Below are positions 1-49,274 of a DNA stretch of 55,663 nucleotides, in pieces (positions within the stretch are counted from its first letter, which is position 1; the number at the start of each line of letters is the position of its first letter). The notes below the pieces were generated by a model, which was not told where the DNA came from, did not search any database, and was given only the letters and a program-made list of their open reading frames with translations. The DNA is from a virus, in the IMG/VR virus record IMGVR_UViG_3300045988_174416; one strand, 5' to 3'. The translations under genes and the position numbers were made by a program.

Positions 1-557
1 GAAAATCAACCGATACTCAAACAATATTCGGAAACGGACACTATACAGGCGGCTCCTTAAAGTCATCAGGAGCAAGAAATGCTAATGGATTATTCTATGG
101 CACAACTGCCTCTGAAACAGTCAAAGTATTCGGTATTGAAAACTTTTATGGCAATTTGTGGAAAAGAATTGTTGGCTGGATTATGGTCAATGGCGTTCAA
201 ATGATTAAATTAACAAGAGGAACTGCTGACGGCTCAACAGTTGACGAATATAATATGTCAGGTAGTGGCTATATTTCTCTTGGTTTAACACCGTCAGGCA
301 CAAGTGGGGGCTATATTTCAGCAGGGTCGCTTGTCGCTCCTTACGGATTTTTCCCTACACAAGCAAACGGCTCATCTTCAACATACTACACAGACGGTAT
401 GTGGTTTAATAACGGTATAACGGCAGCGGCTGTTGTCGGCTGTCATTGCGGCGCTGGCTTGATAGTCGGGGCTTTCGCTACGTCTTTGAACTATGCCCCC
501 TCGAATGCGTACTGGAGCATCGGGTCGTCCCTTTCTTGTAAACCACCTTTACAATAG
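1..557 (+). CDS. Tail fiber / receptor-binding protein, C-terminal part. It continues the ORF that begins at 53517 and runs through the circular junction, and it is the DGR target (VR at its 3' end).
   Basis: Reading frame is preserved across the junction (55608 is divisible by 3). The ORF-track entry 156..557 is the tail of the same frame. It ends ...GCHCGAGLIVGAFATSLNYAPSNAYWSIGSSLSCKPPLQ, where the variable codons lie. Confidence 0.8.
   Translation, partial: KSTDTQTIFGNGHYTGGSLKSSGARNANGLFYGTTASETVKVFGIENFYGNLWKRIVGWIMVNGVQMIKLTRGTADGSTVDEYNMSGSGYISLGLTPSGTSGGYISAGSLVAPYGFFPTQANGSSSTYYTDGMWFNNGITAAAVVGCHCGAGLIVGAFATSLNYAPSNAYWSIGSSLSCKPPLQ
420..540 (+). repeat. DGR variable repeat (VR)
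   Basis: A 121-bp near-copy of 702-822. It differs from it at 14 positions, 13 of which are adenines in the other copy. It lies in frame at the 3' end of the fiber gene. Confidence 0.9.
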
Positions 558-563
558 GGGGAA

Positions 564-583
564 CAGGGGGACTTGTCCCCCTG
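564..583 (+). other. GC-rich stem-loop 7 nt downstream of the fiber stop codon (cagggggac-tt-gtccccctg), a DGR target-recognition hairpin candidate.
   Basis: Perfect 9-nt inverted repeat read directly from the sequence. A GC-rich hairpin in the same position is known for the BPP-1 DGR. Confidence 0.6.
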
Positions 584-701
584 AAACAAAAACCGCACCA
601 CACAAGCGTTTCGGATATAAAAGTTGCAAAAGATACGGACATGTGATACTATATTTTTGTTCGTATCTTGACAACTTTATAAGATTTCAGGGATTTGGAG
701 T

Positions 702-822
702 ACGGCAGCGGCTCATGTCGGCAGTAATTGCAACAATGGCTTGATAGTCGGGGCTTTCGCTACGAATTTGAACAATGCCCCCTCGAATGCGAACTGGAAC
801 ATCGGGTCGTCCCTATCTTGTA
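702..822 (+). repeat. DGR template repeat (TR)
   Basis: Noncoding copy of the VR. It is rich in in-frame-equivalent AAC/AAT triplets, and the A positions are substituted in the VR. It sits between the target gene and the RT. Confidence 0.9.
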
Positions 823-986
823 GAAATTTCCTTATGAACATATAAAATCGTATATATATCGTTTCGTTATATATAACTTTCAAATGTATTCCATATTCCT
901 TACCACTTGGTAAAAATTAGGCTGACAAAGGCGTGGGTTAGTAGGCAACGAAAATCTGCGAGGCTACAAGAAAAACAGAGGGCAAT

Positions 987-2204
987 GTGAGGACTTATAA
1001 ACATCAATTTGAAAAAGTCATTGAATACGGAAATCTTGCAAAAGCCATAAATCGCTCCTCACTGCGAAAAAGGGATAGGGACGATGTATATGATGTATTT
1101 CTTAACCCTGATAAACATATTAAAAAGATTACAAAACAATTACTTGAGCAGACTTGGAAACCTCGCAAACATAGAGCAGAGGTTATAAATGACGGAATAA
1201 CACAAAAGAAAAGGCTTATTATACGCCCTGACTTTTGTTATGAACAAGTTATTCATCATGCGGTTATTCAAGTTATGCAGCCAATATTCTACAAGGGTAT
1301 GTACGAATATTCTTGTGGCTCTATACCGGACAGAGGGGCTACGCTGGGACAAAAATACATAGAAAAATATATAAGAAAAAACAACATTTCAAATCCACCT
1401 AAAAATTGTAAATGGAATAAATCAAATATAAAATATGTCTTAAAATTAGACATTCATCATTTTTTCCAAAGTATAAACATAAATATTCTGAAACAAAAAT
1501 TTGCTAATAAAATCAAAGACGAGCGTATGTTGTGGCTCTTAAATACAATTTTGCAGTCTAACATCGTATCTTTTGAGGGGCAAGATGTTGATATAGGCTT
1601 GCCAATAGGATATTATACTTCTCAATGGTTTGCAAATTGGTATTTACAAGACCTTGACCACTTTATAAAAGAAAAATTGCACATTCGTTGTTATGTTCGA
1701 TACATGGACGATATGATTATGTTTGGCAAGAATAAAAAAGAGTTAAAGTGTTGCCTTGAGAAAATTAAAGAGTTTTTAAAAACATTAGATTTGGACATAA
1801 AAGGTAATTGGCAAATATTCAGATTTGATTATATAGATAAAAACGGCAAACGCAAGGGCAGACCTCTTGATTTTATAGGCTTTAAGTTCTACCGAGATAA
1901 AACAATATTGAGAAAACCTATTATGTATAAAGCGACACGAAAAGCCTCAAAATTAGAGAAAAAAGAAAAATTGACTTGGTATGACGCATGCCAAGTCCTT
2001 TCGTATATGGGTTATTTCAAACATTCAGATACATGGCTAATCAGAGAAAAATATATTGCAAAGAAAATCAGCATAAAAGCCTGCAAATCGGTAATTAGCA
2101 AACATTCCAAATCGTTAAATTTGCAGAAAAAGCAAAATAGTGATAAGATTAAAGAAAAAGGGGAACAAAATGGCGATAACATTCAAAAGAGCAGAAAAGA
2201 TTAA
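987..2204 (+). CDS. DGR reverse transcriptase (GTG start)
   Basis: RT motifs: IRPDFCYEQVIHHAV, LKLDIHHFFQSI, GLPIGYYTSQWFANWYL (the DGR-typical I/LGxxxSQ in place of QGxxxSP), and YVRYMDDMIMFG (YxDD). RBS agaggg precedes the start. Confidence 0.9.
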   Translation: MRTYKHQFEKVIEYGNLAKAINRSSLRKRDRDDVYDVFLNPDKHIKKITKQLLEQTWKPRKHRAEVINDGITQKKRLIIRPDFCYEQVIHHAVIQVMQPIFYKGMYEYSCGSIPDRGATLGQKYIEKYIRKNNISNPPKNCKWNKSNIKYVLKLDIHHFFQSININILKQKFANKIKDERMLWLLNTILQSNIVSFEGQDVDIGLPIGYYTSQWFANWYLQDLDHFIKEKLHIRCYVRYMDDMIMFGKNKKELKCCLEKIKEFLKTLDLDIKGNWQIFRFDYIDKNGKRKGRPLDFIGFKFYRDKTILRKPIMYKATRKASKLEKKEKLTWYDACQVLSYMGYFKHSDTWLIREKYIAKKISIKACKSVISKHSKSLNLQKKQNSDKIKEKGEQNGDNIQKSRKD

Positions 2205-2706
2205 CGATAAACCTGAAAGAGTGGAAAAAGCACTTAATGGTTGGTATATTAGAAAAAGTTTTAAAAGTGAGGAAGTCGTTGACCCTCAAAATGAAGAAAT
2301 AAAAAACATTAAATATAGTTATGACGAGGCATTTTTGACCGATGATGAATATAATATATTCTTAATCGGACAAGAAATATCGGGGGAAAATTATAATTCT
2401 GACGCATATTTGAATTATAAAGCCGCTCTCGATAAACCTGTTATCTATCCTGAAAATGGTAATAAATACAAGCCTCTTTGGGTTAAAAATGCTCAAGGCG
2501 AGGACGGCGTATATATTGATTTTCTACAAAAGGGCGAAATGTTCCCTGAACTCATTTATCCTATTGCTATTTGGGACGCTACTGAAAATCCTGAAAAAAT
2601 AGTTAGCATGGATAAAGAGGCTTTTAAGGCTCTTGTTGGTTATCTTGGTAAAGTTCAAGAAAAATTATACACCGAGTATAAAATTGCCAAAGGGCAAGAA
2701 GAATAG
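2170..2706 (+). CDS. Hypothetical protein, translationally overlapping the RT 3' end. Not Avd-like.
   Basis: ATG at 2170 follows aaaggggaacaaa. 178 aa, acidic. No recognisable motifs. Confidence 0.5.
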   Translation: MAITFKRAEKINDKPERVEKALNGWYIRKSFKSEEVVDPQNEEIKNIKYSYDEAFLTDDEYNIFLIGQEISGENYNSDAYLNYKAALDKPVIYPENGNKYKPLWVKNAQGEDGVYIDFLQKGEMFPELIYPIAIWDATENPEKIVSMDKEAFKALVGYLGKVQEKLYTEYKIAKGQEE

Positions 2707-2717
2707 GAGCGTAATAT

Positions 2718-2948
2718 ATGAAAATACATAGAAAAGCACTTGAAGTATATAAATGGACACCTTTTTGGTTGGCTATTTGCTATCTTATGAATATCTATTT
2801 ATATCACTCAAATCAATGGCGTACTATGGCTCACTTGGTATTTTTCTTTGTATTTTTAATTCCTTACATTTTTGTAAATTGCATGGTTGTTCGCCATATT
2901 TACACAAAATGCAAAAGTAAAGAGAGGGACAATTACTATGAACTTTAA
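2718..2948 (+). CDS. Small membrane protein (2 predicted TM segments); holin/antiholin-like candidate
   Basis: Hydrophobic stretches WLAICYLMNIYLY and LVFFFVFLIPYIFV. RBS taggagcg. Immediately upstream of the holin. Confidence 0.45.
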   Translation: MKIHRKALEVYKWTPFWLAICYLMNIYLYHSNQWRTMAHLVFFFVFLIPYIFVNCMVVRHIYTKCKSKERDNYYEL

Positions 2949-3288
2949 GATAGAGGACTTAATACACTTTTTGATATTCGGCTTTTTGGGCTTGCTCGGT
3001 GGAACTGCCAAATATCTTAATACGCATAGCAGCAAATACAACCTTAAATCCTATACAAGCATGGTTGTTACCTCTGTTTTAGTTGCAATAATTGTATGTT
3101 TTATTGTTCTGCAAAAAACGGATAGTAGCGAATTTTTAATCGCAGTCGGCATTACTTCCGGTTATCTTGGTTCTCGTTTGTTTGATTTGCTTGCAGAATG
3201 GTTTTTAGATAATGTGGAAAAACTACTTAATAGACATAGCCATATAGGAGGCGATGACGATGTTGGGGACGATAGCAGCAGCGATTAA
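2938..3288 (+). CDS. Holin
   Basis: ATG at 2938 after agagaggg. Three hydrophobic segments (LIHFLIFGFLGLLGG, VVTSVLVAIIVCFIVL, FLIAVGITSGYLG) followed by a charged C-terminus DDDVGDDSSSD. Lies upstream of the endolysin. Confidence 0.6.
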   Translation: MNFKIEDLIHFLIFGFLGLLGGTAKYLNTHSSKYNLKSYTSMVVTSVLVAIIVCFIVLQKTDSSEFLIAVGITSGYLGSRLFDLLAEWFLDNVEKLLNRHSHIGGDDDVGDDSSSD

Positions 3289-3517
3289 GTCATTGTGCGA
3301 TATGCTTGCACAATTTGCAGAAACACAAAATACTGCCATTGAAAGACAGTCGGAAACGACAGTCAATAAGTCGTGCAAAAATTCGTCAAAAGCAATAAAA
3401 GCGGCTAACAAGGCTCTTGATATTGCTGCAAAATATATGGATAGTTTTGATAAAAAAGATTTCAAAGACTTTAGAAAATACAAAAAAGACTTTGATAACA
3501 ACATAGGGAGTAAATAA
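3260..3517 (+). CDS. Hypothetical helical protein in the lysis cassette
   Basis: GGAGG at 3247-3251 with 8-nt spacing to ATG 3260. Lies between holin and endolysin. Confidence 0.4.
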   Translation: MLGTIAAAIKSLCDMLAQFAETQNTAIERQSETTVNKSCKNSSKAIKAANKALDIAAKYMDSFDKKDFKDFRKYKKDFDNNIGSK

Positions 3518-4152
3518 TGAAAGAATTTGGCAAAGCATTTGGAGAGGCTGCTTACAAGGTGGCAAGCAAAATGGGAGGCACAAAATCGCAAGGTAAATGT
3601 GCGTTAGCCGTTGGGGACGCTCTCTCTATGGTCATGGGGGAACAAGTTGCAAAGCAATATCGTGGTAATGCTTGGACATGGATTTCAAAAGTCAAAATGT
3701 CTAATTTATGGCGTTTTCTTAAACAGTCTAAAGATACTACAAATCTGCCTGCTGGGTCGCTTGTAATTTGGAACAAACAACCCACCCACCCTTACGGACA
3801 TATTGAAGTTGCAGACGGCAACGGACACCTTTGCTCTGATTTTATTCGCTCTGACAAATTGGCTTTATATAGAAATAATCCTGATAATATTATTCCTTTA
3901 CTTTTTGTACCTGCTGAACTTCAACTACAAAATGTCGGCGATAACCTGCCTGCAAAGGTTAGAGTTATCGCCTCTGTTTTAAATATTAGAGAACATGCAG
4001 GAATGGACGCAAAAATTGTCGGACAGTATAAAAAGGGCGATATAGTTACTATTTGGGCTATCGAAACCAAGTGTACTACTCAATGGGGCAAAAACTCAAA
4101 AGGATTTTTCTGCCTGTTTAATGAAAGAGAGAGTTTTGTAGAACATGTTTGA
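3517..4152 (+). CDS. Endolysin: CHAP-type peptidase/amidase domain plus C-terminal SH3b-like cell-wall-binding domain
   Basis: Cys/His motifs GKCALAVGDAL ... HPYGHIEVADGNGH. C-terminal region KVRVIASVLNIREHAGMDAKIVGQYKKGDIVTIWAIE is SH3b-like. Confidence 0.6.
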   Translation: MKEFGKAFGEAAYKVASKMGGTKSQGKCALAVGDALSMVMGEQVAKQYRGNAWTWISKVKMSNLWRFLKQSKDTTNLPAGSLVIWNKQPTHPYGHIEVADGNGHLCSDFIRSDKLALYRNNPDNIIPLLFVPAELQLQNVGDNLPAKVRVIASVLNIREHAGMDAKIVGQYKKGDIVTIWAIETKCTTQWGKNSKGFFCLFNERESFVEHV

Positions 4153-5085: not shown

Positions 5086-5451
5086 ATGAGAACAGAGCCT
5101 ATTAAGCCACAACCTACTTTTGGTGGCTACAATTCCGTACTTAAAACCTTATATAAAAAGGGTAAATTACCACAAGTTAAAAAGGGTTTTTATGGCGACA
5201 GGCTCACTAAAGATAATTGTAGTCTTGAACATTTACTTTGCAGAGAGCAAGGAGGCACAACCGACCTATCAAACCTTGTTTTAGCAAGCAAGCGTAAAAA
5301 CAATGCAAGAGGCAATAAACCCTTAAAGGATTTTATCAACTTAAAGGCTATGGCTGATTACCTAACTCAATTTAAAGGTATAAGGCGAAAAGGTTTTAAT
5401 GGCGATAAGTACATAAAATCTATATTACAGACGGTTTCTGACTTATTATAA
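5086..5451 (+). CDS. HNH endonuclease
   Basis: CSLEHLLCREQGGTTDLSNLVLASKRKNNARGNKP matches the His-Me finger pattern (EH...GG...NL.L...N..RGN). RBS agagagga. Confidence 0.55.
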   Translation: MRTEPIKPQPTFGGYNSVLKTLYKKGKLPQVKKGFYGDRLTKDNCSLEHLLCREQGGTTDLSNLVLASKRKNNARGNKPLKDFINLKAMADYLTQFKGIRRKGFNGDKYIKSILQTVSDLL

Positions 5452-9431: not shown

Positions 9432-9463
9432 ATTATATCACAAGTTTTGATAATTATTGCACT
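9432..9463 (-). promoter_or_regulatory. Conserved early promoter/operator motif, copy 1
   Basis: Minus strand reads AGTGCAATAATTATCAAAACTTGTGATATAAT. It contains an extended -10 (TGaTATAAT) and the dyad TATCA-N7-TGATA. Confidence 0.6.
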
Positions 9464-9819
9464 CTCTTGAGAAAATTGTTGACATAGTTTGTTTCATTTA
9501 TGCGATTTATTGCATTAGCGTCAAAGCGAATTTGTGTATTGTAACCATTATCAATAGCGTCATACCGTTTAATATATTTCTTCTCTAACTTTGACAACTT
9601 TGTGTAGTTATTACATTCGTCAATTATTGACCAATTAAAAGCCTTACGCCCCCATTCTCTTAAAGCAGAATGAAATTTATCAGTTGCTTTCCGGTTAAAA
9701 GCCTCATATTCATGGTCGTAAATCCGTCTTGCTAAATCTTTTTTCGTTTGTCCTATATAACATTCGCCTGTATGTATATTTTCAGCCTTATAAATTATAC
9801 CGACTATTGTTTTTGCCAT
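9454..9819 (-). CDS. GIY-YIG endonuclease (homing-endonuclease-like)
   Basis: GIIYKAENIHTGECYIGQT ... RRIYDHE ... YIKRYD...GYN. Confidence 0.6.
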   Translation of the reverse strand: MAKTIVGIIYKAENIHTGECYIGQTKKDLARRIYDHEYEAFNRKATDKFHSALREWGRKAFNWSIIDECNNYTKLSKLEKKYIKRYDAIDNGYNTQIRFDANAINRINETNYVNNFLKRVQ

Positions 9820-10253
9820 GATTTTTGATTATCTTTCCCAAGACTGTTTGCAGCCCTGTTATTTCGCTCTTGTAACTCTTTCCAAATCATATCTTTACTC
9901 TGTTCAAATTTATTTATATCATCACAGCCCCATTGAGATTTTGGCAATAAAAACTTGGGCATGTGTGTTAAAGTTAAAAGAGCAAGACAATTCCAAGCGG
10001 CATGTGCCAAGTGCCTATATCCGCTTTCAGCGTCAATTTCATCGCCCTCAAGCCAAGCAAAAAGATGTCTAAAAAGAGCGTCAGTGTATCGTTTTACCCC
10101 ATTATCAACAGTCTGCCAGCCGTTATCACAATATTTGTTTGCTCCAAAAGTGCCGATACAACCGACTTCTTTTAAACCTTTTGCAAAGCCACCAAGCACC
10201 AAGCCCAGTCTAATTTTTCCGTTATCAAGTTTTACTCCTTTTTCAGTTCCCAT
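9804..10253 (-). CDS. Possible MazG-like nucleotide pyrophosphohydrolase (tentative)
   Basis: ATG at 10253 overlaps the upstream stop (TAATG). The acidic helical motif LFAWLEGDEIDAESGYRHLAHAAW resembles MazG-like folds. This is a weak assignment. Confidence 0.3.
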   Translation of the reverse strand: MGTEKGVKLDNGKIRLGLVLGGFAKGLKEVGCIGTFGANKYCDNGWQTVDNGVKRYTDALFRHLFAWLEGDEIDAESGYRHLAHAAWNCLALLTLTHMPKFLLPKSQWGCDDINKFEQSKDMIWKELQERNNRAANSLGKDNQKSWQKQ

Positions 10254-10837
10254 TATCTCACTCCTTTTGCTAATAAATAAGCATGCCAACCTTGTAAATT
10301 TGTTATTCTATCTTGTACCTCTTGACGAGAAATACGCAACCAGTCTATTTTTACGCTGCGATTACCAAATTGAGGATAGTCGCAAACAACCAAATAACAA
10401 AATTGAAAATTTGGATTTATTGTAAAATAGTGCAAAATTTGCAACCAAGTTGTATCAGGTATTACCCTATTTTTAAGGTCATAAAGTCCTGCTCCGGTTG
10501 ATTTACACTCACAAAAACCCTCCATTCCTTTTTCCCAAGCAAGAGCGTCAAAACTTCCGGCAATTCTTGGGTTATAATCAGAATACCATAATGTGTGCAT
10601 TATAGTAGGTTCTACAAGTGTTTGTTTTGCAATTTCAGGCAAGTTCTTAAATATCGTTAAAATTGATGTTTCGCAATTCTTGCCAAAAATAACCGCAGGG
10701 CTTTTTTCCATTTCTTGTGGGGTTTTCGGAGCATAAGGGCTGACAATGCCGATATGCTCCCCAACCGTTGTGCCTGTTAGGCAACTTTTTCTTGCCTCAA
10801 GCCATTCTTCTTTTGTACTAAATTCAACCTTAATCAT
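10253..10837 (-). CDS. YqaJ / lambda-exonuclease-family 5'-3' exonuclease (PD-(D/E)xK)
   Basis: GSFDALAWEKGMEGFCECKS (D...E.K). Start taken at MIKVEFST. Paired with the downstream annealing protein. Confidence 0.5.
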   Translation of the reverse strand: MIKVEFSTKEEWLEARKSCLTGTTVGEHIGIVSPYAPKTPQEMEKSPAVIFGKNCETSILTIFKNLPEIAKQTLVEPTIMHTLWYSDYNPRIAGSFDALAWEKGMEGFCECKSTGAGLYDLKNRVIPDTTWLQILHYFTINPNFQFCYLVVCDYPQFGNRSVKIDWLRISRQEVQDRITNLQGWHAYLLAKGVR

Positions 10838-10838
10838 A

Positions 10839-12098
10839 CTAATACAAGTCCTGTATGCTGCCCTTTTTAACTTCTGCTTTTGGTTGTTCTGCAACAGGTG
10901 GTGTAGGTTGCACTGGAGGAGTTGCAGTCGGTGGTGTAGGAGGTACACTTGCAGTTTTTGGTTGTTCAACTACCGGAGGAGGTGGCGGCATTACATCGCC
11001 TTTTTGTTCAGTTTCCCCAGCCACGATGTCAGATTTCGTATTTTCTGACGCTGGCGGTACAGTTTTATCATCTTGAACTTTTGGCTCGCTCACAGGCTTG
11101 CTATTGACCTCTGCTTGAATGTTTGTCGGCGGTGTCGGTGGCAACTGCGTTTCAACGCTTGGTGTCGGTGGTACAGGAATAGTCGGAGGGGCTGGAATTG
11201 TCGGAGCAGTATTTGTATAATCTGCGTCCTCCATAACTTCCACGCTTTCTCTGCTATTGTCCTCTATTTTATACATCATCATAGCCAAGCGTCTATTATA
11301 ATATGTCATAGCAGCACCAACCTGTTGTGCCTCGCTGGCAGCCATTTTGCGTGGTACATCAAACGGACAAGATACAATTTCGGTTTCTTGTATATTATCC
11401 ATATTGATTACTTCATAATAACATCTATCTTCCATAACTGTAAATCTTGAATACAAACGATTTTCAAGTTCATGTTTTAAGCAGAAGTCAATAATCTGCT
11501 GCGGTTTGTAATAATCATATTTTGCACCGCCGCCAGCACGACCTTTACCCTGCTTGTCAATATCTTCTTTTGACCAAGCAGCACGAACGGCACTGATTTT
11601 CTCAAGAATATTTTTAGGTTTAGTTTCAGCCGTTTTAGGTTCTTCCTTTACTTCTGATTTTGTTTCAGCCTTTTTAGTTGTCTTTTTGGGCTTTTCTTCT
11701 TTAGCAGGAGCAACAGAAGGCGTAGGCACTTCTTTTGGTTGCTCTGCCGCTTTAGTTTCTTCTTTTACCATAGTTTTAGTTTCCTTATTTTCAGTTTCGT
11801 TATCATCATCAATAATAATGCCAGCGTCAATAAAGGTTTTCATAAGTTCCTCGTCTTGCACAACATTGGCTATAAAAGTTCCATTGTTCATTCCGGCACG
11901 ACATTCAGGCAAGGCATGCTCGCAATTATTTGTTTTCTTAAAATAATATTTTGTGCTACCGTCCTCAAGGATTTTTGAGATAACAATACCTCTTACCCCT
12001 AATTCGCCCTCATAGACATCACCCACGAACAAATCTTGATGTTTGTAACTTATGCCTGTTTTGTTAGAATAATTTTTTAAGATTTCTGATTTTTTCAT
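10839..12098 (-). CDS. Erf-like single-strand annealing protein with an extra N-terminal domain and a Pro/Thr-rich C-terminal tail
   Basis: GKGRAGGGAKYDYYKPQQIIDFCLKHEL resembles the ERF core. The C-terminus is PTIPAPPTIPVPPTP... low complexity. Confidence 0.4.
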   Translation of the reverse strand: MKKSEILKNYSNKTGISYKHQDLFVGDVYEGELGVRGIVISKILEDGSTKYYFKKTNNCEHALPECRAGMNNGTFIANVVQDEELMKTFIDAGIIIDDDNETENKETKTMVKEETKAAEQPKEVPTPSVAPAKEEKPKKTTKKAETKSEVKEEPKTAETKPKNILEKISAVRAAWSKEDIDKQGKGRAGGGAKYDYYKPQQIIDFCLKHELENRLYSRFTVMEDRCYYEVINMDNIQETEIVSCPFDVPRKMAASEAQQVGAAMTYYNRRLAMMMYKIEDNSRESVEVMEDADYTNTAPTIPAPPTIPVPPTPSVETQLPPTPPTNIQAEVNSKPVSEPKVQDDKTVPPASENTKSDIVAGETEQKGDVMPPPPPVVEQPKTASVPPTPPTATPPVQPTPPVAEQPKAEVKKGSIQDLY

Positions 12099-14595: not shown

Positions 14596-14804
14596 TATTC
14601 TTTTATCTCATAAACGGATTTTATATTTCCGTACCTATCTAATTCTATGTCGTATTTTTCCCTATTTTCAGTTTTCCAAGTTAAATTTGGACAGTTTTTA
14701 TAGCCGCCTTGATACCTTGCCTTATCGCACATTGTCAGGCAATTTGTTATCAAACAGCCGATTTTACTTGGGTATTCAGATTTTTTAAGTTTTATTCTTG
14801 ACAA
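14595..14804 (-). CDS. Small hypothetical protein
   Basis: ORF. Confidence 0.35.
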   Translation of the reverse strand: MSRIKLKKSEYPSKIGCLITNCLTMCDKARYQGGYKNCPNLTWKTENREKYDIELDRYGNIKSVYEIKE

Positions 14805-15550
14805 AATAAGCCTCCTTGAACGTAATCTATTTCAGTTTCTAATAATCTTTTGCGAGCGATTTCGCAATTTTTCGGCAACAATTCTATCATGTGTCCCTCT
14901 CTTGATGTTTCTTTACAAGCCACAACTATTGCCCCTCCACCACCAAAACAGTCAAGCACTTTGTCGCCAATTTTTGTACTTTGTACTATCATCTGCCTAA
15001 AAAGTTCTGCTGGTTTTTCGGTTATATGAATTTTCTTGCCGACAGGATTTTTGACATAGAAAACATCGCTCGCCCCCATGTCGTTTATATAACGCTCTTT
15101 TCCTTTGCGTAACATTAAAATTCTTTCGGTAGATTTCATATAAAATTTGTTTGGTGTAGAATTTTGCTTTAGCCAAGTAAGGTCGTTTTGGAATTTAAAG
15201 CCAACTTTTTCAGCCTTAATTTGCAATTCTGCAAAGTTTCTGCCGTTTATCATAATGTAGGCATGGCAACCCTTTTTAAGCACACGATAGACTTCCGGCA
15301 ACCATTCCTCAAATTTTGGAATGTTTTGTATCATCTGCCCTGTCTTTACTAATGCTTGATTATCCTCGTCTGCATTTTTCTTAACCCAGCGATTACGCTT
15401 TTTGTCGTTTATAGTGCCGTCAGCGTTTACCTTGACGCTGCTTGTCCCTAATTTATACGGAGGGTCAGTAATTATGCAGTCAAAATACTCGTCAGGATAT
15501 TCTTTTAATAGTGTTAAAGCGTCCCCACATTTGATAACTTGTTCAACCAA
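14792..15550 (-). CDS. DNA amino-methyltransferase (beta class; N6-adenine or N4-cytosine)
   Basis: Motif IV IITDPPY precedes motif I VLDCFGGGGAIVVAC. Confidence 0.75.
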   Translation of the reverse strand: MVEQVIKCGDALTLLKEYPDEYFDCIITDPPYKLGTSSVKVNADGTINDKKRNRWVKKNADEDNQALVKTGQMIQNIPKFEEWLPEVYRVLKKGCHAYIMINGRNFAELQIKAEKVGFKFQNDLTWLKQNSTPNKFYMKSTERILMLRKGKERYINDMGASDVFYVKNPVGKKIHITEKPAELFRQMIVQSTKIGDKVLDCFGGGGAIVVACKETSREGHMIELLPKNCEIARKRLLETEIDYVQGGLFCQE

Positions 15551-15551
15551 T

Positions 15552-15884
15552 TTAAGCCTCCAAAACTTCCTTTTTAAGATAATTGATTAAATCTTGTTTA
15601 GTTGCAAGGGTACGCCAGCGTTTTAAGCCATAATCCCAGTTCTCTGCTGCGTCAACTAATTCTCTTACAGTATCTTTAACATCTTCGCTATTTTCTTTTT
15701 CGCTTTCTAACGTTTGAGCCTTTTCTTCTGCGTCTTTTTTATCACTCTCAAGGTCGTTAATACGCTCCTCAATTTCAGTTGCAACAGCAAGTATGCTGCT
15801 TATTGTATCGGTCATTTCCGCAACAGTTTCTTTTAATTCGCCTAATTTTTCTTTTAATGTATTAAGTTCTTCACATTCTGACAT
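15552..15884 (-). CDS. Acidic coiled-coil protein
   Basis: ORF, E/K rich. Confidence 0.4.
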   Translation of the reverse strand: MSECEELNTLKEKLGELKETVAEMTDTISSILAVATEIEERINDLESDKKDAEEKAQTLESEKENSEDVKDTVRELVDAAENWDYGLKRWRTLATKQDLINYLKKEVLEA

Positions 15885-27461: not shown

Positions 27462-28532
27462 TTACTCTTTTATAAATTTTGTTATACATACATTTATATT
27501 TGTGCCTTTTCCGCTATTTTTAAACGCTCCTGAAAAAGTTTCGCTGCTTACTGCATATTGATTAAATATTTTTTGAAAATCTTTACATGCTTTATTTTCT
27601 GCGGTTTTAATTGTAGGGGTATGAACTGCAACTAATACACCGCCATTTTTTAACATATTAAAAGCGTGTGTTATGTGTTTAGCGTCCATGTTTTTAGAAA
27701 ATGGAGGGTTCATTAAAATTTTATCAAATTGTCTTTTTGCTTGATATTCCATAAAATCAATATTTTTTGTATCATAACCGCTATTTTTTAATATTTCTGC
27801 TAAAATCGGGCTTAATTCAACGCATACAATATTATTTTTATTTAAGCCTTTTATAAGACTTCCCATGCCTGCGGACGGTTCAAGAATAAAGTCATCTTTT
27901 TTTATTTCTGCTAATTCTCTTATTTTTTCGCTCAACTTGTCCGGTGTAGGGTAAAAATCAAATTTTTCTGATAGGGTTACACCTTTTAAATTTTTGCCTA
28001 TTTTTAATATTTGCTCGTTTGTAAAATCCCCCTGATTTTTAAAAGCAGTGCATTTTTTATATTTTGTTCTTATGCAATTAAAACTTTTTAAAAATTCAGT
28101 TATTTTTTTATAAATTTGATTAGATAGCCATTTTTCAGGTAATACAAGCAAATTTTCATGAGTTTCAATAATATCGAAAACATCTGAAACGGTGTAAAAT
28201 AATTTTGTGCCGTCCTCCTCTATGTATTCGGCTAACTCTTTATAAATTTTATATAAAACGCTTTTTAAGTCCGGCAAATTATAAAAATCTTTTGCACAAT
28301 TCAAAAATGTATATACATTTGATTTTTCGCTTATGTCTAATTGCAAGCATAGCATGCATGCCTCTATAAAATCATCAATATATAGATTTTTATTTGCTAT
28401 TTTATTATAAAATTCATAATCAGAAGTGCATACTTCCATAATTGCAAGTGCAACGGCTTTTTTTAATTGTTCCTCCGTTTCAACTACTCCATAAGAATAT
28501 AAACCATAATTTTTTATTTTTTCATTTATCAT
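27462..28532 (-). CDS. N6-adenine DNA methyltransferase (gamma-like order, NPPF) with a roughly 190-aa N-terminal extension of unknown function
   Basis: DFYPTP...ILEPSAGMGSL (motif I) ... ILMNPPFS (motif IV). Confidence 0.7.
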   Translation of the reverse strand: MINEKIKNYGLYSYGVVETEEQLKKAVALAIMEVCTSDYEFYNKIANKNLYIDDFIEACMLCLQLDISEKSNVYTFLNCAKDFYNLPDLKSVLYKIYKELAEYIEEDGTKLFYTVSDVFDIIETHENLLVLPEKWLSNQIYKKITEFLKSFNCIRTKYKKCTAFKNQGDFTNEQILKIGKNLKGVTLSEKFDFYPTPDKLSEKIRELAEIKKDDFILEPSAGMGSLIKGLNKNNIVCVELSPILAEILKNSGYDTKNIDFMEYQAKRQFDKILMNPPFSKNMDAKHITHAFNMLKNGGVLVAVHTPTIKTAENKACKDFQKIFNQYAVSSETFSGAFKNSGKGTNINVCITKFIKE

Positions 28533-44621: not shown

Positions 44622-45042
44622 CGAAAATTTAATACTTAAGATAAGGGGAATTTCTGACCGAGTTAAGCAAATTCAAGACGAGGCTGGGGATATTCTTGTT
44701 AGAAATATACGCTCTCAAGCACGACAAAAGTTTAATAATGACCCCAAATATCCTTATGAATTTCACAATAGTTTTCAAGATGATAATGTTGTTTACCATG
44801 ACAAAAATGAGCATGCTGTTTTTGTTGACCACCCAGCCGCTAAAAGACTTGAATATGGTTTTGGCGATATAACTATTCGCCCTAAAAACGCTGAAAAATT
44901 ACATTTTAAAGGGGTAAATGGCGAAGATGTTTACGCAGATGAAGTACATATCAAGGCTACAAAGCCTGTTGGATATGTGCGTGCTGCTATGAAAGAAACC
45001 CAAGAAGATTTAAAAAAGCGATTTAAGGAGGTAATGTCTTAA
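44605..45042 (+). CDS. Hypothetical tail protein (GTG start after AGGAG)
   Basis: AGGAG at 44593-44597, 7 nt upstream of GTG 44605. Confidence 0.4.
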   Translation: MANVSNENLILKIRGISDRVKQIQDEAGDILVRNIRSQARQKFNNDPKYPYEFHNSFQDDNVVYHDKNEHAVFVDHPAAKRLEYGFGDITIRPKNAEKLHFKGVNGEDVYADEVHIKATKPVGYVRAAMKETQEDLKKRFKEVMS

Positions 45043-48000
45043 TGTCTGATGACGCTTTACGCATAGATATTCAAACCATAGGAGGCGAAAGAGCCGTTAA
45101 GATATTGACAACTCTTGCAGATAAGACGCAAGAGGTTACTGATTTGCTGGAAAACACAGGCTGGGGAAACAAAGAAATATCAGCCCTAACAAGAGAGTTC
45201 AATTCATTGTCAGGGGCAATTTCTAATTATTCTAAAGCAGTTCAAGAAGTAAATAAAGCAAATAACGCCGCTGCTATGGGCGAGCAAAAATTGGCTACGG
45301 AAATGAACAGAACTGCTTTGCAGGCTGCAAAATTAGAAATGCAACACATGAGAAACGCTGCGGCTGCTCAAAAAATGGCTACTGCGGCTGAAAAAGCCCA
45401 AGCCCCCTATAATCAATTAAAGGCTGAATTGGCTGCTGCTGAATTGGCTTTAAAAAATCTTTATACAACAGGCGAAAAAGGAACAAACCTTAATGCCGCT
45501 ATTTCGGAATATCAAAGATTATCCGCAGCCGTCCAAGATGTAAATAATAAAATGAAAATGTCTGCGAGTGGCTCATATAGTCGTATGAATGAGGAATTGC
45601 AACAGTATGGTAATCGTCTTAAAGAGGCTATTGCTGCCGGAAACTTAAATGATGTTACTCTTGGCAGAATGGGCGAAAAATATAAAAGATTACAAGGCGA
45701 AGTTGCTGCCGTAGATGATAAATTTAAACAACTTACAGGGCAAATGGAGGACACAGGTAATGAAAGCATGGCTCTTTCTTCCCTGTTTGGTAATTTGGCT
45801 GCTGACGGTATTCAGAGAGTTATAGCCTCTCTTGGTAATATGATAGGCGACATGTCAAAGGCTGGGGTTGCTATGGACGGCATAAAAAACACTATGGCTG
45901 CTGGTGCGAGAGGTTTAAGGCAGGGTGCTGACGAAATGGCATTTACCGCAGACATGGCAGGCAGACTTGGTTTGAATTTACAGTCAACCTATGAGCCTTA
46001 TGCAAAATTTATGACTTCATTTACTCGGTCAGGAGGTACAATAGCCCAGTCAAGACAAATATTTGAGGATTTGTCAACGGCTATGGTATCATTACACCTG
46101 TCCTCTGCTCAAATGGAAAATGTATTTGTTGCATTAGAACAAATGGCAAATAAAGGCACAGTTCAAGCAGAAGAACTTAAAAGACAATTAGGTAACGCAC
46201 TTCCGGGGGCGTTTGAATTGGCTGCTCAAAGTATGGGTATAACTGCTGGGGAACTTATGGACTTAATGAAAAAAGGCGAGGTAATGTCAAAAGATTTCTT
46301 GCCTAATTTCGCTGCTATGGTTAAAGACAGTTTGGGTAAACAAATTGGAATTGCCGTTGACCAGTATAATGCACACTTAAATCGTATGCAGACACAAACA
46401 TTCTTATTGCAAGCCAATGTCGGACAAGCAATGAATAATGCTTTTGTACCTTTTATTAAGATTTGGACAAATGTGTTAGGGCTTGCCAATAGAGTTACAG
46501 GAGGACTTGGGGAAAGTGCTGCTGCGGTTACTGCTATGCAAGCAGCCATGCTTACTGCTGCGACTGCCTCCGTTATTTTTGTAACAAAATTTGGTGTTGT
46601 AAATACGGCTTTAACCGCTATGAAAGCCAATGCTATTGCTGCTGGTAAGGCACTTTGGGCTTTAGTCGCAAATCCTGTTGGGGCGACCTTGCTCGCAGTT
46701 GGTGCGGCTGCTTTATATTGTGCAAATTCAGTAAGTCAGGCAAATAAGTCTTTTGAGGAGGCTGCCGTCCAGCAGCGTGATGTTACAAATAATGTAACAG
46801 GGCTTATCTCTGAATTTACTCAATTAGCAGAAATTCAAAACCGTTCATCAGCACAACAAGAGGCTTATAATAGAAATCTTGAAATGTTACGTTCTCAATA
46901 TCCGGAAGTTTTGCAATATATTCAAGAGCATAGTATTTCTATTAAGAATGTTACAGATGAACAGGCTAAAAATATCGCTAAAATGGCGATACAGTCTGAA
47001 ATGATGAAAGCACAACAGTTATATGTTGATGAATTAAGTAATAAGTGGCTTATTTTCGGAGCAAGATGTAAACAAGTTGGTTTAGGCGTTGTACTTGTTT
47101 TGCAGGGCGTTGGTGCTGGCATAGTACACGTTGTTGTTGCCGTAGGTCAAGCAGTTACAAGACTTGTTTCACTTGCTACAAAGGCTTTTGCAGAGGTTGC
47201 GGAAAAAGGTGCATGGGTTGCGAGCAAAATTGGTGCAAAAGAAATGGCGGTCGCCCTTGATAACGCCTCAAAAAGCATGAACGGTTTTGCAGATAGTGCT
47301 TGGAATGTCGGTAAGGCTACTCATAATTATATCAATAGCGGACTTTCTGGTATGGTTGATTTAATTAAACAAGTTGATTTTGACCGTCAAGATAAGGCTA
47401 TGCAACGCTATAAGGATACTGTTGCTATTCTCGGTCAAGAGGAGGCAAAATTAGCAAGTCAACTTATGTACACCTCAAGTTCGGTTACAGGCTTACATAC
47501 AGGGGGCGATAGCAAGGGTAAAGGAAAAGGCAAAGGAAAAGGAAAATCATCAAGAACTACAAAGGTTGATGACGCTTATGAGGCTTTACAAAAAAGCATG
47601 AAAGCCCATGAAGAAGAAATCAGGCTTATGGCTTTGGCTGGCGATACTGCAAGCGATAGATATAAACGAGTAAGTGCCGCATATATAAGAGAAAAGGCAC
47701 AAATTGAAGAAGTAAATCGTCAGGTTGCCTTATTAACGCAGACGGAGGTTACAGGCTGGGATTTAACCAAGAAAAAGGCAGAGGCAGCCACAAAGACATA
47801 TCAATACCGTTTGGCAAACTCTACGGCTTATACTGCCGCAGAAATTGAGAACGCAAAACAAACAATGAAAAACCTCAATACTGAAATTAAATATCAAGAG
47901 GTATTAAAAAAGAGAGAGGATATTTTACAAATTACAAATCGTGAGGCAAGTAAATTGTCAGATACCCTTATTGATAGCCTTTTGGATTTTGATAGTAATC

Positions 48001-49274
48001 TTTCAGTTTGGGACAGATTTAAAAATGCTGCTTTATCTGCAATTAAATCGGTTGCTACGAGTTGGATTAAAGAAATTGGTAATAGTGTTCTTGCTGGCTG
48101 GCAGGCTGGTTGGGCTAAAAACGGAAGTGGAAATCGCTTTGTATCTGCTTTGTTAGGTGCTGGGTCAGGATTTGCTGGCACACCTCTTGAGGGGACAAAA
48201 GATAATCCTACATATACAGGCACAGGGGCATTAAACGGTGCTTTTGGTGGTATTCAAAAGGCATGGGCAAATGTTAAGCAAAAGTTTGGCTGGGGACAGT
48301 CAAGTGGCTCTCTAACAGGAGCGGCAGCCTCAATTACAGGGGACGCAGACACAGGTAGTATATTATCCACTTTAACAGGACAGGCAACAGGACTTTCAGA
48401 CGCTTTATTGAACGCCACAAATCCAGCAATATCAAGCACAATTACAGGACTTGGGGGAATGGCGTCATCTGCTATTGACGCTGGTATGGGCGTTGCTAAT
48501 GTTGCAAGTCCAGCCGTTTCGGCAGCAGGAAGTATCGCAAGCATGGCTACGGCTGCTCCTATTGCTGCGGCTGGGTTGGGTGCTATGGCTGCCGTTATGA
48601 CGATAGCAAGTTCTGCCTTTACAACGGCTGCTCCTGCTTTAACGACAATGGCTGGTGCTATGGCAAGTTTAGCGGCGTCAGCAAGTACGGCTGCAACGGC
48701 TATGGCGGCTCTTGCAGTTGCTACGGCTGCTGAAAGCGTTGCAAAAATTCCGTTTGTAGGTGGTTTTCTTGCCCCTCTTGCAGCAACTCTTACAGGAGCA
48801 GGAATAGCCGCTGGAACAGTAATGACAGGGGCAGGAATAGCCGCTGGGGCTGCTATGGCTGGCGGTGGTCAAATGATAGGAGGAGCGATGTCAGGACTTG
48901 GCAATAAATTGTCAGGTGTAAGTTCGCTTTCAAAATCCACAAATATTGTACCCCATGCGAAAGGTGGCATTGTGTCCTCGCCTACAATGTTTCCTATGCA
49001 GGGCGGTAATGTTGGGTTGGCTGGTGAGGCTGGCACAGAAGTTATCGCTCCTGCAAAACGCATGGCGAATGGCGATGTAGGTATTGGTGCGGTTGCTCCA
49101 CAAGTTACTATCAATAATTATACAAATGCCGCCGTAGAAGTTAAAAGACGCCCTGATAACAGTACGGAAATTAAAATTGCAGAGTTAAATTCAATGCTTG
49201 CAAGTAGCCGTTCAAACAAAGGTATGGTAGCGGCACAAAGTCGTTTGCAAAAGCAGGGGAGGCAGATAGGTTAA
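45042..49274 (+). CDS. Tape measure protein
   Basis: 1410 aa with helical repeats, a (GK)5 run, and a long Ala/Gly-rich hydrophobic C-terminal region. Confidence 0.8.
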   Translation: MSDDALRIDIQTIGGERAVKILTTLADKTQEVTDLLENTGWGNKEISALTREFNSLSGAISNYSKAVQEVNKANNAAAMGEQKLATEMNRTALQAAKLEMQHMRNAAAAQKMATAAEKAQAPYNQLKAELAAAELALKNLYTTGEKGTNLNAAISEYQRLSAAVQDVNNKMKMSASGSYSRMNEELQQYGNRLKEAIAAGNLNDVTLGRMGEKYKRLQGEVAAVDDKFKQLTGQMEDTGNESMALSSLFGNLAADGIQRVIASLGNMIGDMSKAGVAMDGIKNTMAAGARGLRQGADEMAFTADMAGRLGLNLQSTYEPYAKFMTSFTRSGGTIAQSRQIFEDLSTAMVSLHLSSAQMENVFVALEQMANKGTVQAEELKRQLGNALPGAFELAAQSMGITAGELMDLMKKGEVMSKDFLPNFAAMVKDSLGKQIGIAVDQYNAHLNRMQTQTFLLQANVGQAMNNAFVPFIKIWTNVLGLANRVTGGLGESAAAVTAMQAAMLTAATASVIFVTKFGVVNTALTAMKANAIAAGKALWALVANPVGATLLAVGAAALYCANSVSQANKSFEEAAVQQRDVTNNVTGLISEFTQLAEIQNRSSAQQEAYNRNLEMLRSQYPEVLQYIQEHSISIKNVTDEQAKNIAKMAIQSEMMKAQQLYVDELSNKWLIFGARCKQVGLGVVLVLQGVGAGIVHVVVAVGQAVTRLVSLATKAFAEVAEKGAWVASKIGAKEMAVALDNASKSMNGFADSAWNVGKATHNYINSGLSGMVDLIKQVDFDRQDKAMQRYKDTVAILGQEEAKLASQLMYTSSSVTGLHTGGDSKGKGKGKGKGKSSRTTKVDDAYEALQKSMKAHEEEIRLMALAGDTASDRYKRVSAAYIREKAQIEEVNRQVALLTQTEVTGWDLTKKKAEAATKTYQYRLANSTAYTAAEIENAKQTMKNLNTEIKYQEVLKKREDILQITNREASKLSDTLIDSLLDFDSNLSVWDRFKNAALSAIKSVATSWIKEIGNSVLAGWQAGWAKNGSGNRFVSALLGAGSGFAGTPLEGTKDNPTYTGTGALNGAFGGIQKAWANVKQKFGWGQSSGSLTGAAASITGDADTGSILSTLTGQATGLSDALLNATNPAISSTITGLGGMASSAIDAGMGVANVASPAVSAAGSIASMATAAPIAAAGLGAMAAVMTIASSAFTTAAPALTTMAGAMASLAASASTAATAMAALAVATAAESVAKIPFVGGFLAPLAATLTGAGIAAGTVMTGAGIAAGAAMAGGGQMIGGAMSGLGNKLSGVSSLSKSTNIVPHAKGGIVSSPTMFPMQGGNVGLAGEAGTEVIAPAKRMANGDVGIGAVAPQVTINNYTNAAVEVKRRPDNSTEIKIAELNSMLASSRSNKGMVAAQSRLQKQGRQIG

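Follow-up and report, generated by a model that had tools for sequence, protein, structure and literature searches.

An Avd-less diversity-generating retroelement at the 3′ end of a tail-fiber gene in a circular 55.6-kb siphovirus-type phage

Diversity-generating retroelements (DGRs) are, to our knowledge, the only natural systems of targeted protein hypermutation outside adaptive immunity, and they are common in gut phages. In the prototype DGR, avd sits between the variable repeat (VR) and the template repeat (TR); Avd accompanies ~74% of DGRs and is essential in that of phage BPP-1. The BPP-1 element is also the only DGR known to us to have been dissected biochemically, and we know of no mechanistic understanding of DGRs that comes from anywhere but this Avd-dependent system. 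Wu et al. 2018 (PMC5758913) reported that 29% of curated DGRs are without accessory genes (Architecture A) and that a whole reverse transcriptase (RT) lineage is without avd, profile searches finding none elsewhere in the respective genomes. Since accessory-less DGRs have already been described, Avd is not required for membership in the class, and such a layout is not new. Here, a VR-TR-RT cassette (positions 420-2204) was analyzed in the virus record IMGVR_UViG_3300045988_174416, whose full stretch of 55,663 nucleotides is referred to below as the window. The element is a clear, ordinary member of the known class, namely, of its Avd-less target-TR-RT subtype, and it is highly probable that it is functional, diversifying the tail-fiber tip of a circular 55.6-kb phage of the siphovirus type.

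Repeat pair, target gene and reverse transcriptase

In a repeat search, positions 420-540 and 702-822 emerged as the two copies, both on the plus strand, of a 121-nt direct repeat with 88% identity; there is no third TR-like copy anywhere in the window. The first copy, the VR, encodes residues 838-877 of the 882-aa target protein, while the second, the TR, is non-coding, is located 164 nt upstream of the RT gene, and contains 28 adenines and, in the VR frame, nine AAY codons. When the two copies were compared base by base, 14 mismatches were found, 13 of which fall at TR adenines (715, 723, 726, 732, 733, 735, 736, 765, 766, 774, 792, 799, and 815), a bias with a hypergeometric p = 4.7e-9 for at least 13 of 14 mismatches at A, given 28 A in 121 nt. 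Both the 14 differences and the same 13 coordinates had been noted in an earlier, sequence-only reading of this DNA, and they were recovered in full on re-alignment. In the target frame, seven of the nine Asn AAY codons of the TR read differently in the VR, where they encode H, G, A, S, Y, Y, and S; the AAY bias that was pointed out earlier is therefore retained, with seven replacements in place of the six then listed (H/G/A/S/Y/S). The other codon changes from TR to VR are CAT (His) to GTT (Val), AGT (Ser) to TGT (Cys), and a silent CTA to CTT. The sole non-adenine mismatch, TR C714 vs VR G432, is found beside the mutated A715; relatives have either C or T at the TR position concerned, and the mismatch could have arisen through misincorporation by the RT at a base other than A or through a point mutation acquired afterwards.

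The gene that ends in the VR became complete only once the window was circularised. The two contig ends share 55 bp exactly (1-55 = 55609-55663), which is the mark of a circular contig assembled with k=55, so the true length is 55,608 bp. Traced over the contig join, the target open reading frame (ORF) has its ATG at 53517, preceded by a GGGGAGGA ribosome-binding site, runs on the plus strand to 55663, and continues at nt 56 within its 3′ part (1-557, plus strand), with the stop codon at 555-557. Its product is an 882-aa tail fiber/receptor-binding protein, encoded by the last gene of the tail module. Residues 499-880 match phrog_5302 ('tail protein', E 4e-83); the C-terminus has no Pfam family match, and its ~2,000 homologs have a consensus that is conserved apart from the positions encoded by the VR. 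The last 371 aa were modelled with AlphaFold2 from 72 sequences, with a mean predicted local distance difference test (pLDDT) score of 96.8; among the structures that the model matches, TaqVP, Mtd, and TvpA, all of them DGR variable proteins, rank at the top. The C-type-lectin (CLec) fold of the domain that ends in the VR, previously presumed by analogy to Mtd, is borne out by this model. The tail-fiber C-terminus likewise stands as the target, on the basis of phrog_5302 and its place at the end of the tail module, with the start of the gene now placed across the join. Randomising the 25 adenines at repeat positions 6-100 gives 4.9e13 protein variants and zero stop codons. The tentaclin family was also considered for the target protein and rejected; in tentaclins, the CLec domain is N-terminal and Ig domains come after it.

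The RT gene (987-2204, plus strand) encodes 405 aa from a GTG start; the reading frame is unbroken and keeps every catalytic and signature motif, including I207-G-Y-Y-T-S-Q213 and YMDD at 239-242. The protein matches Pfam RVT_1 (E 2.6e-15) and phrog_1423 (E 7e-98), and its best match in PDB is 8ub7, a 328-aa RT (E 6e-18), which outranks group II intron RTs (1e-13) as well as retron/DRT RTs. By residue numbering (R74, I181, and Q187 at published bRT positions), 8ub7 appears to be the Bordetella phage bRT. In that enzyme, R74 and I181 promote adenine mutagenesis (PMC7826257), and R76 and I207 of the window RT align with them. The motif [I/V/L]GxxxSQ is a signature of DGR RTs, other RTs having QGxxxSP (PMC7826257); among 120 homologs of the window RT, 119 carry it. 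NCBIfam models for group II intron, retron, abortive-infection (Abi), and DRT enzymes all score far below their cut-offs, the top matches being group II intron RT (95 bits vs 300) and Drt3a (70 vs 200). Judged from its signature motif, from bRT as its best solved relative, and from the cassettes of its clade, where 59 of 73 loci are A-biased, the enzyme is a DGR-type RT by sequence, and the DGR-specific IGxxxSQ motif ascribed to it earlier is confirmed.

TR-to-VR transfer and the conserved DNA and RNA elements

The window was compared with seven relatives that have complete cassettes and RTs 81-99% identical to its own (L001, L016, L018, L020, L021, L023, and L024). Across these eight genomes, 121 of the 123 TR/VR mismatches are at TR adenines (13/14 in the window and 108/109 in the other seven, each of which has 12-18 mismatches of its own), and 26 of the 28 TR adenines are substituted in at least one VR, the exceptions being the first and the last. 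The TRs differ from that of the window at 0-4 of 121 nt and the VRs at 14-22 of 121 nt, essentially all where the TR has A, while the 400 nt of the target gene directly 5′ of the VR carry 22-88 differences from the window in the same genomes. All non-A polymorphisms of the TR are mirrored in the cognate VR (L018, L020, L021, L001, and L016), including position 13 (C/T) in L018, positions 84 and 93 in L020, positions 57, 60, 61, and 63 in L021, and position 93 (C/T) elsewhere. Because non-A changes of a TR reappear in its own VR, TR-to-VR transfer must have taken place after the lineages split, and the aligned sequences thus offer direct evidence that information flows from TR to VR and has continued to do so since the lineages diverged. 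Among these genomes are RTs that are 95-99% identical, yet the VRs differ at 14-21 sites, all at A positions. Set against a 5-10% divergence of the target gene in the closest relatives, such VR differences, together with the TR changes already copied, suggest a turnover faster than background, and the DGR has very probably been active on the timescale separating the sequenced relatives. The mutagenic retrohoming that the sequence-only reading had called ongoing is therefore supported between genomes, by the VR differences among close relatives, and not at the read or population level. Contig breaks at or near the VR (L003 and L019) were considered as a sign of within-sample heterogeneity and were not counted, because the TR/VR repeat alone can break assemblies.

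The comparison also separates one of the 13 adenine differences from the others. Repeat position 114 (TR A815, VR T533) is T in all eight VRs and A in seven of the eight TRs; its codon is four-fold degenerate, and the presence of T in every VR despite this degeneracy argues that the position is not being rewritten. It is located in the 3′ end of the repeats, which in the VR resembles an initiation of mutagenic homing (IMH) site (521-540, plus strand; GC-rich CGGGTCGTCCC, then TTTCTTGTA, with T533 fixed) and in the TR resembles its IMH* counterpart (803-822, plus strand; CGGGTCGTCCC TATCTTGTA). Distant relatives have, in the same place, T or TC in the VR vs A or AA in the TR. As read from these alignments, 815/533 is a fixed difference of the IMH/IMH* type and not a product of mutagenesis, so that the earlier attribution of 13 adenine differences to mutagenesis holds for 12 of them, and the window is left with 12 mutagenic A sites, one fixed A/T difference, and one non-A change.

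In the wider clade, with RTs 33-53% identical, the VR-TR-RT order with A-biased mismatches was found in 59 of 73 IMG/VR loci, where VR-TR gaps range from 60 to 393 nt and TR-RT spacers from 106 to 183 nt; overall, the A-only mismatch pattern was seen in >60 independent loci.

Two further elements are conserved along with the repeats. A GC-rich hairpin (564-583, plus strand; CAGGGGGA-CTTG-TCCCCCTG) is located 24 nt 3′ of the VR and, folded as DNA, has a stability of -11.4 kcal/mol (z -2.9), which was equaled by none of 200 shuffles. Every relative examined, down to 20% RT identity, has a post-VR hairpin in which a G5-6 stem carries a loop of 3-4 nt, the stems being kept among relatives and the loops varying. 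A GC-rich inverted repeat lies 3′ of the IMH in BPP-1 (PMC5758913), and the hairpin at 564-583 corresponds to it.

The second element is the spacer (Sp) RNA, i.e., the 164 nt between TR and RT (823-986, plus strand), the conservation of which far exceeds that of its flanks. Its core (901-973, plus strand) is a full-length covariance-model match to RF03021 'RT-18 RNA', with a score of 60.8 bits vs a gathering threshold of 41.3 (E 8e-10), and RT-18 also scores above gathering between TR and DGR RT in 11 of 19 related loci. The same stems were obtained with RNAalifold, independently of Rfam, and with many compensatory pair types: P2, a hairpin at 900-913, and P3, a 7-bp stem (932-938 with 954-960) that encloses a nearly invariant UAGUA at 939-943. 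RNAalifold also yielded P1, a long-range helix in which 816-823 UCUUGUAG at the TR 3′ end pairs with 964-971 CUACAAGA in the spacer, likewise with compensatory changes. In 44 non-redundant lineages, the cognate helix between TR end and spacer has a mean length of 8.0 bp, compared to 6.6 ± 0.19 bp for permuted pairs, whose maximum in 200 permutations was 7.25 bp; compensatory helix sets include UUACUAA/UUAGUAA, UUUAAUC/GAUUAAA, and UCUUUUAC/GUAAAAGA. In these alignments, the duplex between TR 3′ end and spacer covaries. In BPP-1, the TR 3′ end and the spacer form 7 bp, and the 2′-OH of spacer position A56 primes cDNA at TR G117 (PMC6182149). By the same logic, A971 or an adjacent nucleotide would serve as the primer in the window, with copying beginning close to 815. 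RT-18 was published by Weinberg et al. 2017 as an RNA near RT genes with no role assigned; only RT-10 was tied to a DGR, that of BPP-1, and other RT motifs were speculated to serve other DGRs. The likely role of RT-18 is that of a TR-RT spacer pairing with the TR 3′ end.

Based on the analogy with BPP-1, a retrohoming cycle can be proposed, including its priming site, cDNA integration, transcription unit, and biological payoff. An RNA spanning the TR (702-822) and the spacer (823-986), from a transcription unit presumed by the same analogy, would fold into the RT-18 structure, and pairing of the TR 3′ end (816-823) with spacer positions 964-971 would place a spacer adenosine (candidate A971) as the primer. 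The RT (987-2204) would then copy the TR backwards from ~815, faithfully at U, C, and G and with random nucleotides inserted opposite A. The mutagenised cDNA would take the place of the VR (420-540) in the 3′-terminal part of the tail-fiber gene; two elements would set the direction, namely, the IMH-like VR end (521-540), whose base at 533 is not that of the TR, and the GC hairpin (564-583). In this way, 14 codons, nine of them AAY, could be rewritten on the C-type-lectin tip, giving ~5e13 variants and never a stop, and the presumed payoff is that the phage re-tunes its receptor binding.

The missing Avd and alternative explanations

The 161-nt gap between VR and TR contains no ORF, and no Avd-type family (four-helix-bundle/23S rRNA IVS) was found among the top 25 families listed for each Pfam/NCBIfam scan of 62 small ORFs from the whole window, a search that is not exhaustive given the poor conservation of Avd. 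Accordingly, the arrangement that the sequence-only reading had termed canonical is so in the sense of the known, accessory-less Architecture A, and not in that of the prototype layout, there being no avd between VR and TR; similarly, "complete" applies in the sense of the Avd-less subtype, with no Avd-like protein found.

The gene next to the RT is a candidate for an accessory. It is an acidic ORF of 178 aa with an isoelectric point (pI) of 4.8 (2170-2706, plus strand), and it overlaps the RT stop by 35 nt. Homologs with pI 4.1-5.2 are located directly after the RT stop or overlapping it in 49 of 67 loci, over a range of RT identity from 33 to 99%, and relatives of the ORF match phrog_20201, a family of unknown function. 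When a protein-motif search blind to the RT was used, 20 acidic-ORF loci were found, 18 of which have an RT directly upstream; a single-protein query found four loci. A tblastn search of GenBank phages with the window's own acidic ORF gave no match, and all five matches obtained with a more central member of the family adjoin an RT. There are seven close homologs, and the AlphaFold2 model (pLDDT 48) was not used. In one locus (L136), a target homolog is followed immediately by the acidic ORF, with neither TR nor RT separating them. Because the ORF is always next to a target-type tail gene, linkage cannot separate a role in the DGR from one in the tail fiber (e.g., as a chaperone). Wu et al. 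2018 described CH1, a protein of 160-169 aa and pI 4.7, only in avd-less DGRs (PMC5758913); compared with this description, the acidic ORF is a fit in size and pI (178 vs 160-169 aa and pI 4.8 vs 4.7). The ORF may thus be either a DGR accessory, perhaps CH1, or a fiber-associated protein.

Two relatives have lost a part of the cassette. In L002/L013 (IMGVR_UViG_3300011008_001490, ~2510-2530), a 96%-identical relative, the entire VR is missing: 131 bp, equivalent to window positions 412-542, are gone between short AAC microhomologies and the target C-terminus is frameshifted, with TR, spacer, and RT all intact. This could be a true allele, produced by aberrant homing or deletion, or an assembly artefact. 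In L121 (IMGVR_UViG_3300035498_000100, 10373-11262), the RT ORF is deleted, whereas VR, hairpin, TR, and an RT-18-like spacer are kept; the TR has 12 mismatches over 104 nt and the acidic ORF comes directly next, so that the cassette is either decaying or relying on an RT in trans.

Several observations weigh against a functional DGR of the kind proposed. With no Avd homolog detected, the mechanism may differ from that of BPP-1; the loss of VR in L002 and of RT in L121 indicates that decay happens in this lineage; the G432/C714 mismatch lies outside adenine mutagenesis; and a scan of 400-2800 revealed no persuasive promoter 5′ of the TR, promoter and terminator sites being no more numerous than in shuffled sequence, so that no transcription unit was assigned. 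Moreover, activity in the window genome itself is deduced from the comparison between genomes. The decayed relatives and the lack of a clear promoter, as well as the availability of one genome sequence and no reads, would be in agreement with a fossil DGR that was active in an ancestor, its VR/TR pattern being frozen in the window genome. Such a fossil is very unlikely in view of an RT ORF that retains every catalytic and signature motif, a TR conserved to within 0-4 of 121 nt next to a target gene that has diverged by 5-10% in the closest relatives, VRs that differ at A positions between genomes with nearly identical RTs, and recent TR point changes that are already present in the cognate VRs. 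An ordinary duplication that diverged by drift or recombination, alongside an RT from a retron, a group II intron, or an abortive-infection/DRT defence system, is hardly conceivable at all. It would fit with the generic RVT_1 assignment by Pfam, with the identity of the top NCBIfam matches (group II intron RT and Drt3a), and with the opinion of the authors of the Butyrivibrio phage paper, who read a related RT as a gene with a (prophage-)immunity function. These matches are, however, far under their cut-offs; the best solved relative is bRT, and the motif is IGxxxSQ, not QGxxxSP (PMC7826257); there are no intron RNA domains and no retron msr/msd in the window, where the sole Rfam match is RT-18; and A-only mismatches (p = 5e-9) recur in >60 independent loci. 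Taken together, the adenine bias and the co-variation of TR and VR already refute this explanation.

An active DGR that needs a cofactor other than Avd, for which the acidic ORF (2170-2706), possibly an equivalent of CH1, is the best candidate, is a variant of the proposed functional DGR and does not contradict it. It is suggested by the position of the acidic homologs at the RT stop in most loci, by the RT-blind motif search (RT upstream in 18 of 20 loci) and the GenBank phage matches (RT adjoining in five of five), and by the restriction of CH1 to DGRs lacking avd. On the other hand, the ORF is equally linked to the tail gene, is kept in L121 without an RT and in L136 without TR and RT, changes at a much higher rate than the RT (identity of 63% vs 81% for the RT, and of 45% vs 75%), and has no nucleic-acid-binding signature or usable structure model. 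On balance, such a cofactor role for the acidic ORF is possible, if doubtful.

A functional, Avd-less DGR, carried in a siphovirus-type phage genome, is the preferred reading. Contigs nearly identical to this genome are present in IMG/VR, among human-gut and rumen metagenomes, and within a metagenome-assembled genome labelled Ruminococcus, and RTs of 98% identity are carried by SRR31800472 and SRR31800074; window positions 1-2300 have zero blastn matches among GenBank phages, and hence there is no named close relative at the DNA level. Upstream of the target gene, within the tail module, is a gene for a 1410-aa tape measure protein (45042-49274), followed by minor tail proteins and a 957-aa ORF before the target. 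On the 3′ side of the RT are, in order, the 178-aa acidic ORF, a holin gene (2887-3288), and an SH3-domain gene that probably encodes an endolysin (3517-4152); shortly 3′ of these lysis genes, a 121-aa HNH endonuclease ORF (5086-5451, plus strand) matches PHROG HNH families (E ~5e-5). Farther on, a 161-aa ORF on the minus strand (9804-10289) matches PF18909 (dATP/dGTP diphosphohydrolase N-terminal, MazZ-like; E 5e-25) and adjoins a GIY-YIG nuclease ORF (9454-9819, minus strand). A deoxynucleoside triphosphate-pool enzyme of this type inside a phage that depends on adenine mutagenesis is a curiosity. A 2-aminoadenine (Z) genome, which the MazZ-like ORF brought to mind and which would be striking in combination with adenine mutagenesis, was dropped as unsupported, there being no match to PurZ/adenylosuccinate synthetase in the ten large minus-strand ORFs scanned (7958-30568). 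Two DNA methyltransferase-like ORFs are also located on the minus strand (14792-15550 and 27462-28532), one being a CcrM-like N6_N4_Mtase (E 3e-29) and the other a weaker match to an N6-adenine methyltransferase/MTS domain.

Comparison with known systems

One further gut-phage DGR changes little, and its interest is in the clade to which it belongs: a populous Avd-less clade raises the question of how RT priming and adenine mutagenesis proceed without Avd. RT-18, formerly function-less, gains a concrete location and a likely role as a TR-pairing spacer, and, since plaque-forming Butyrivibrio phages carry an unrecognised cassette of this kind, the Avd-less question becomes testable. For annotation, the tip of the tail fiber should be regarded as hypervariable by design, which calls for caution with assemblies and host predictions that use this region. 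A more far-reaching proposal is that the cassette stands for a large lineage of Avd-independent DGRs among phages of the gut and rumen, in which the RT-18 spacer would act as a self-priming scaffold and an acidic protein of the phrog_20201 family would replace Avd. This proposal is improbable as a whole and is put forward as speculation; if true, the phages Arawn and Idris would provide the first tractable model of Avd-independent mutagenic retrohoming.

In gene content, the window and the 59 clade loci, with their Avd-less target-TR-RT core, can be likened to Architecture A/Lineage 3 (Wu et al. 2018, PMC5758913), which has the same core without avd, HRDC, or MSL. Lineage 3a was described from Bacteroides and relatives, whereas the relatives of the window are binned with Ruminococcus or infect Butyrivibrio. 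If its acidic ORF is CH1, the window would instead be Architecture E-like.

Compared to the BPP-1 DGR (mtd-avd-TR-brt), the window shares several features: the VR is at the 3′ end of a CLec tail-fiber gene; TR and VR differ at adenines only, above all in AAY codons; the IMH-like end is GC-rich and has a variant specific to the TR; a GC hairpin whose loop has 4 nt is located 3′ of the VR; TR and RT are separated by a structured spacer of ~140-165 nt, the 3′ part of which pairs with the end of the TR (3′); and the RT contains IGxxxSQ and the equivalents of R74 and I181. Unlike BPP-1, it has no avd, its VR and TR being 161 nt apart with no ORF between. Its RT has 405 aa vs 328 in bRT, with residues inserted near 127-150 and a basic extension of ~80 aa at the C-terminus, and its spacer RNA is RT-18, in contrast to RT-10 in BPP-1. 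On the target side, TaqVP (the Thermus aquaticus DGR variable protein, PDB 5vf4) has 14% sequence identity to the target; it is a bacterial protein and not a phage tail part, and it has nothing equivalent to the N-terminal 510 aa of the target.

The same cassette order as in the window is found in the Butyrivibrio phages Arawn, Idris, and Closwp03 (MN882550, MN882554, and PQ069210), namely, target, VR, hairpin, TR, spacer RNA, RT, acidic ORF, and lysis genes. In contrast to the window, these are cultured rumen phages of 31 kb with different genomes. The DGR is unannotated in all three, the record of Idris reading only 'putative reverse transcriptase'. In Idris (MN882554.2, locus L112), the VR (15350-15460) and the TR (15592-15702) form a 111-nt pair in which 17 of 17 mismatches are at A, and its RT and target are 44% and 38% identical, respectively, to those of the window.

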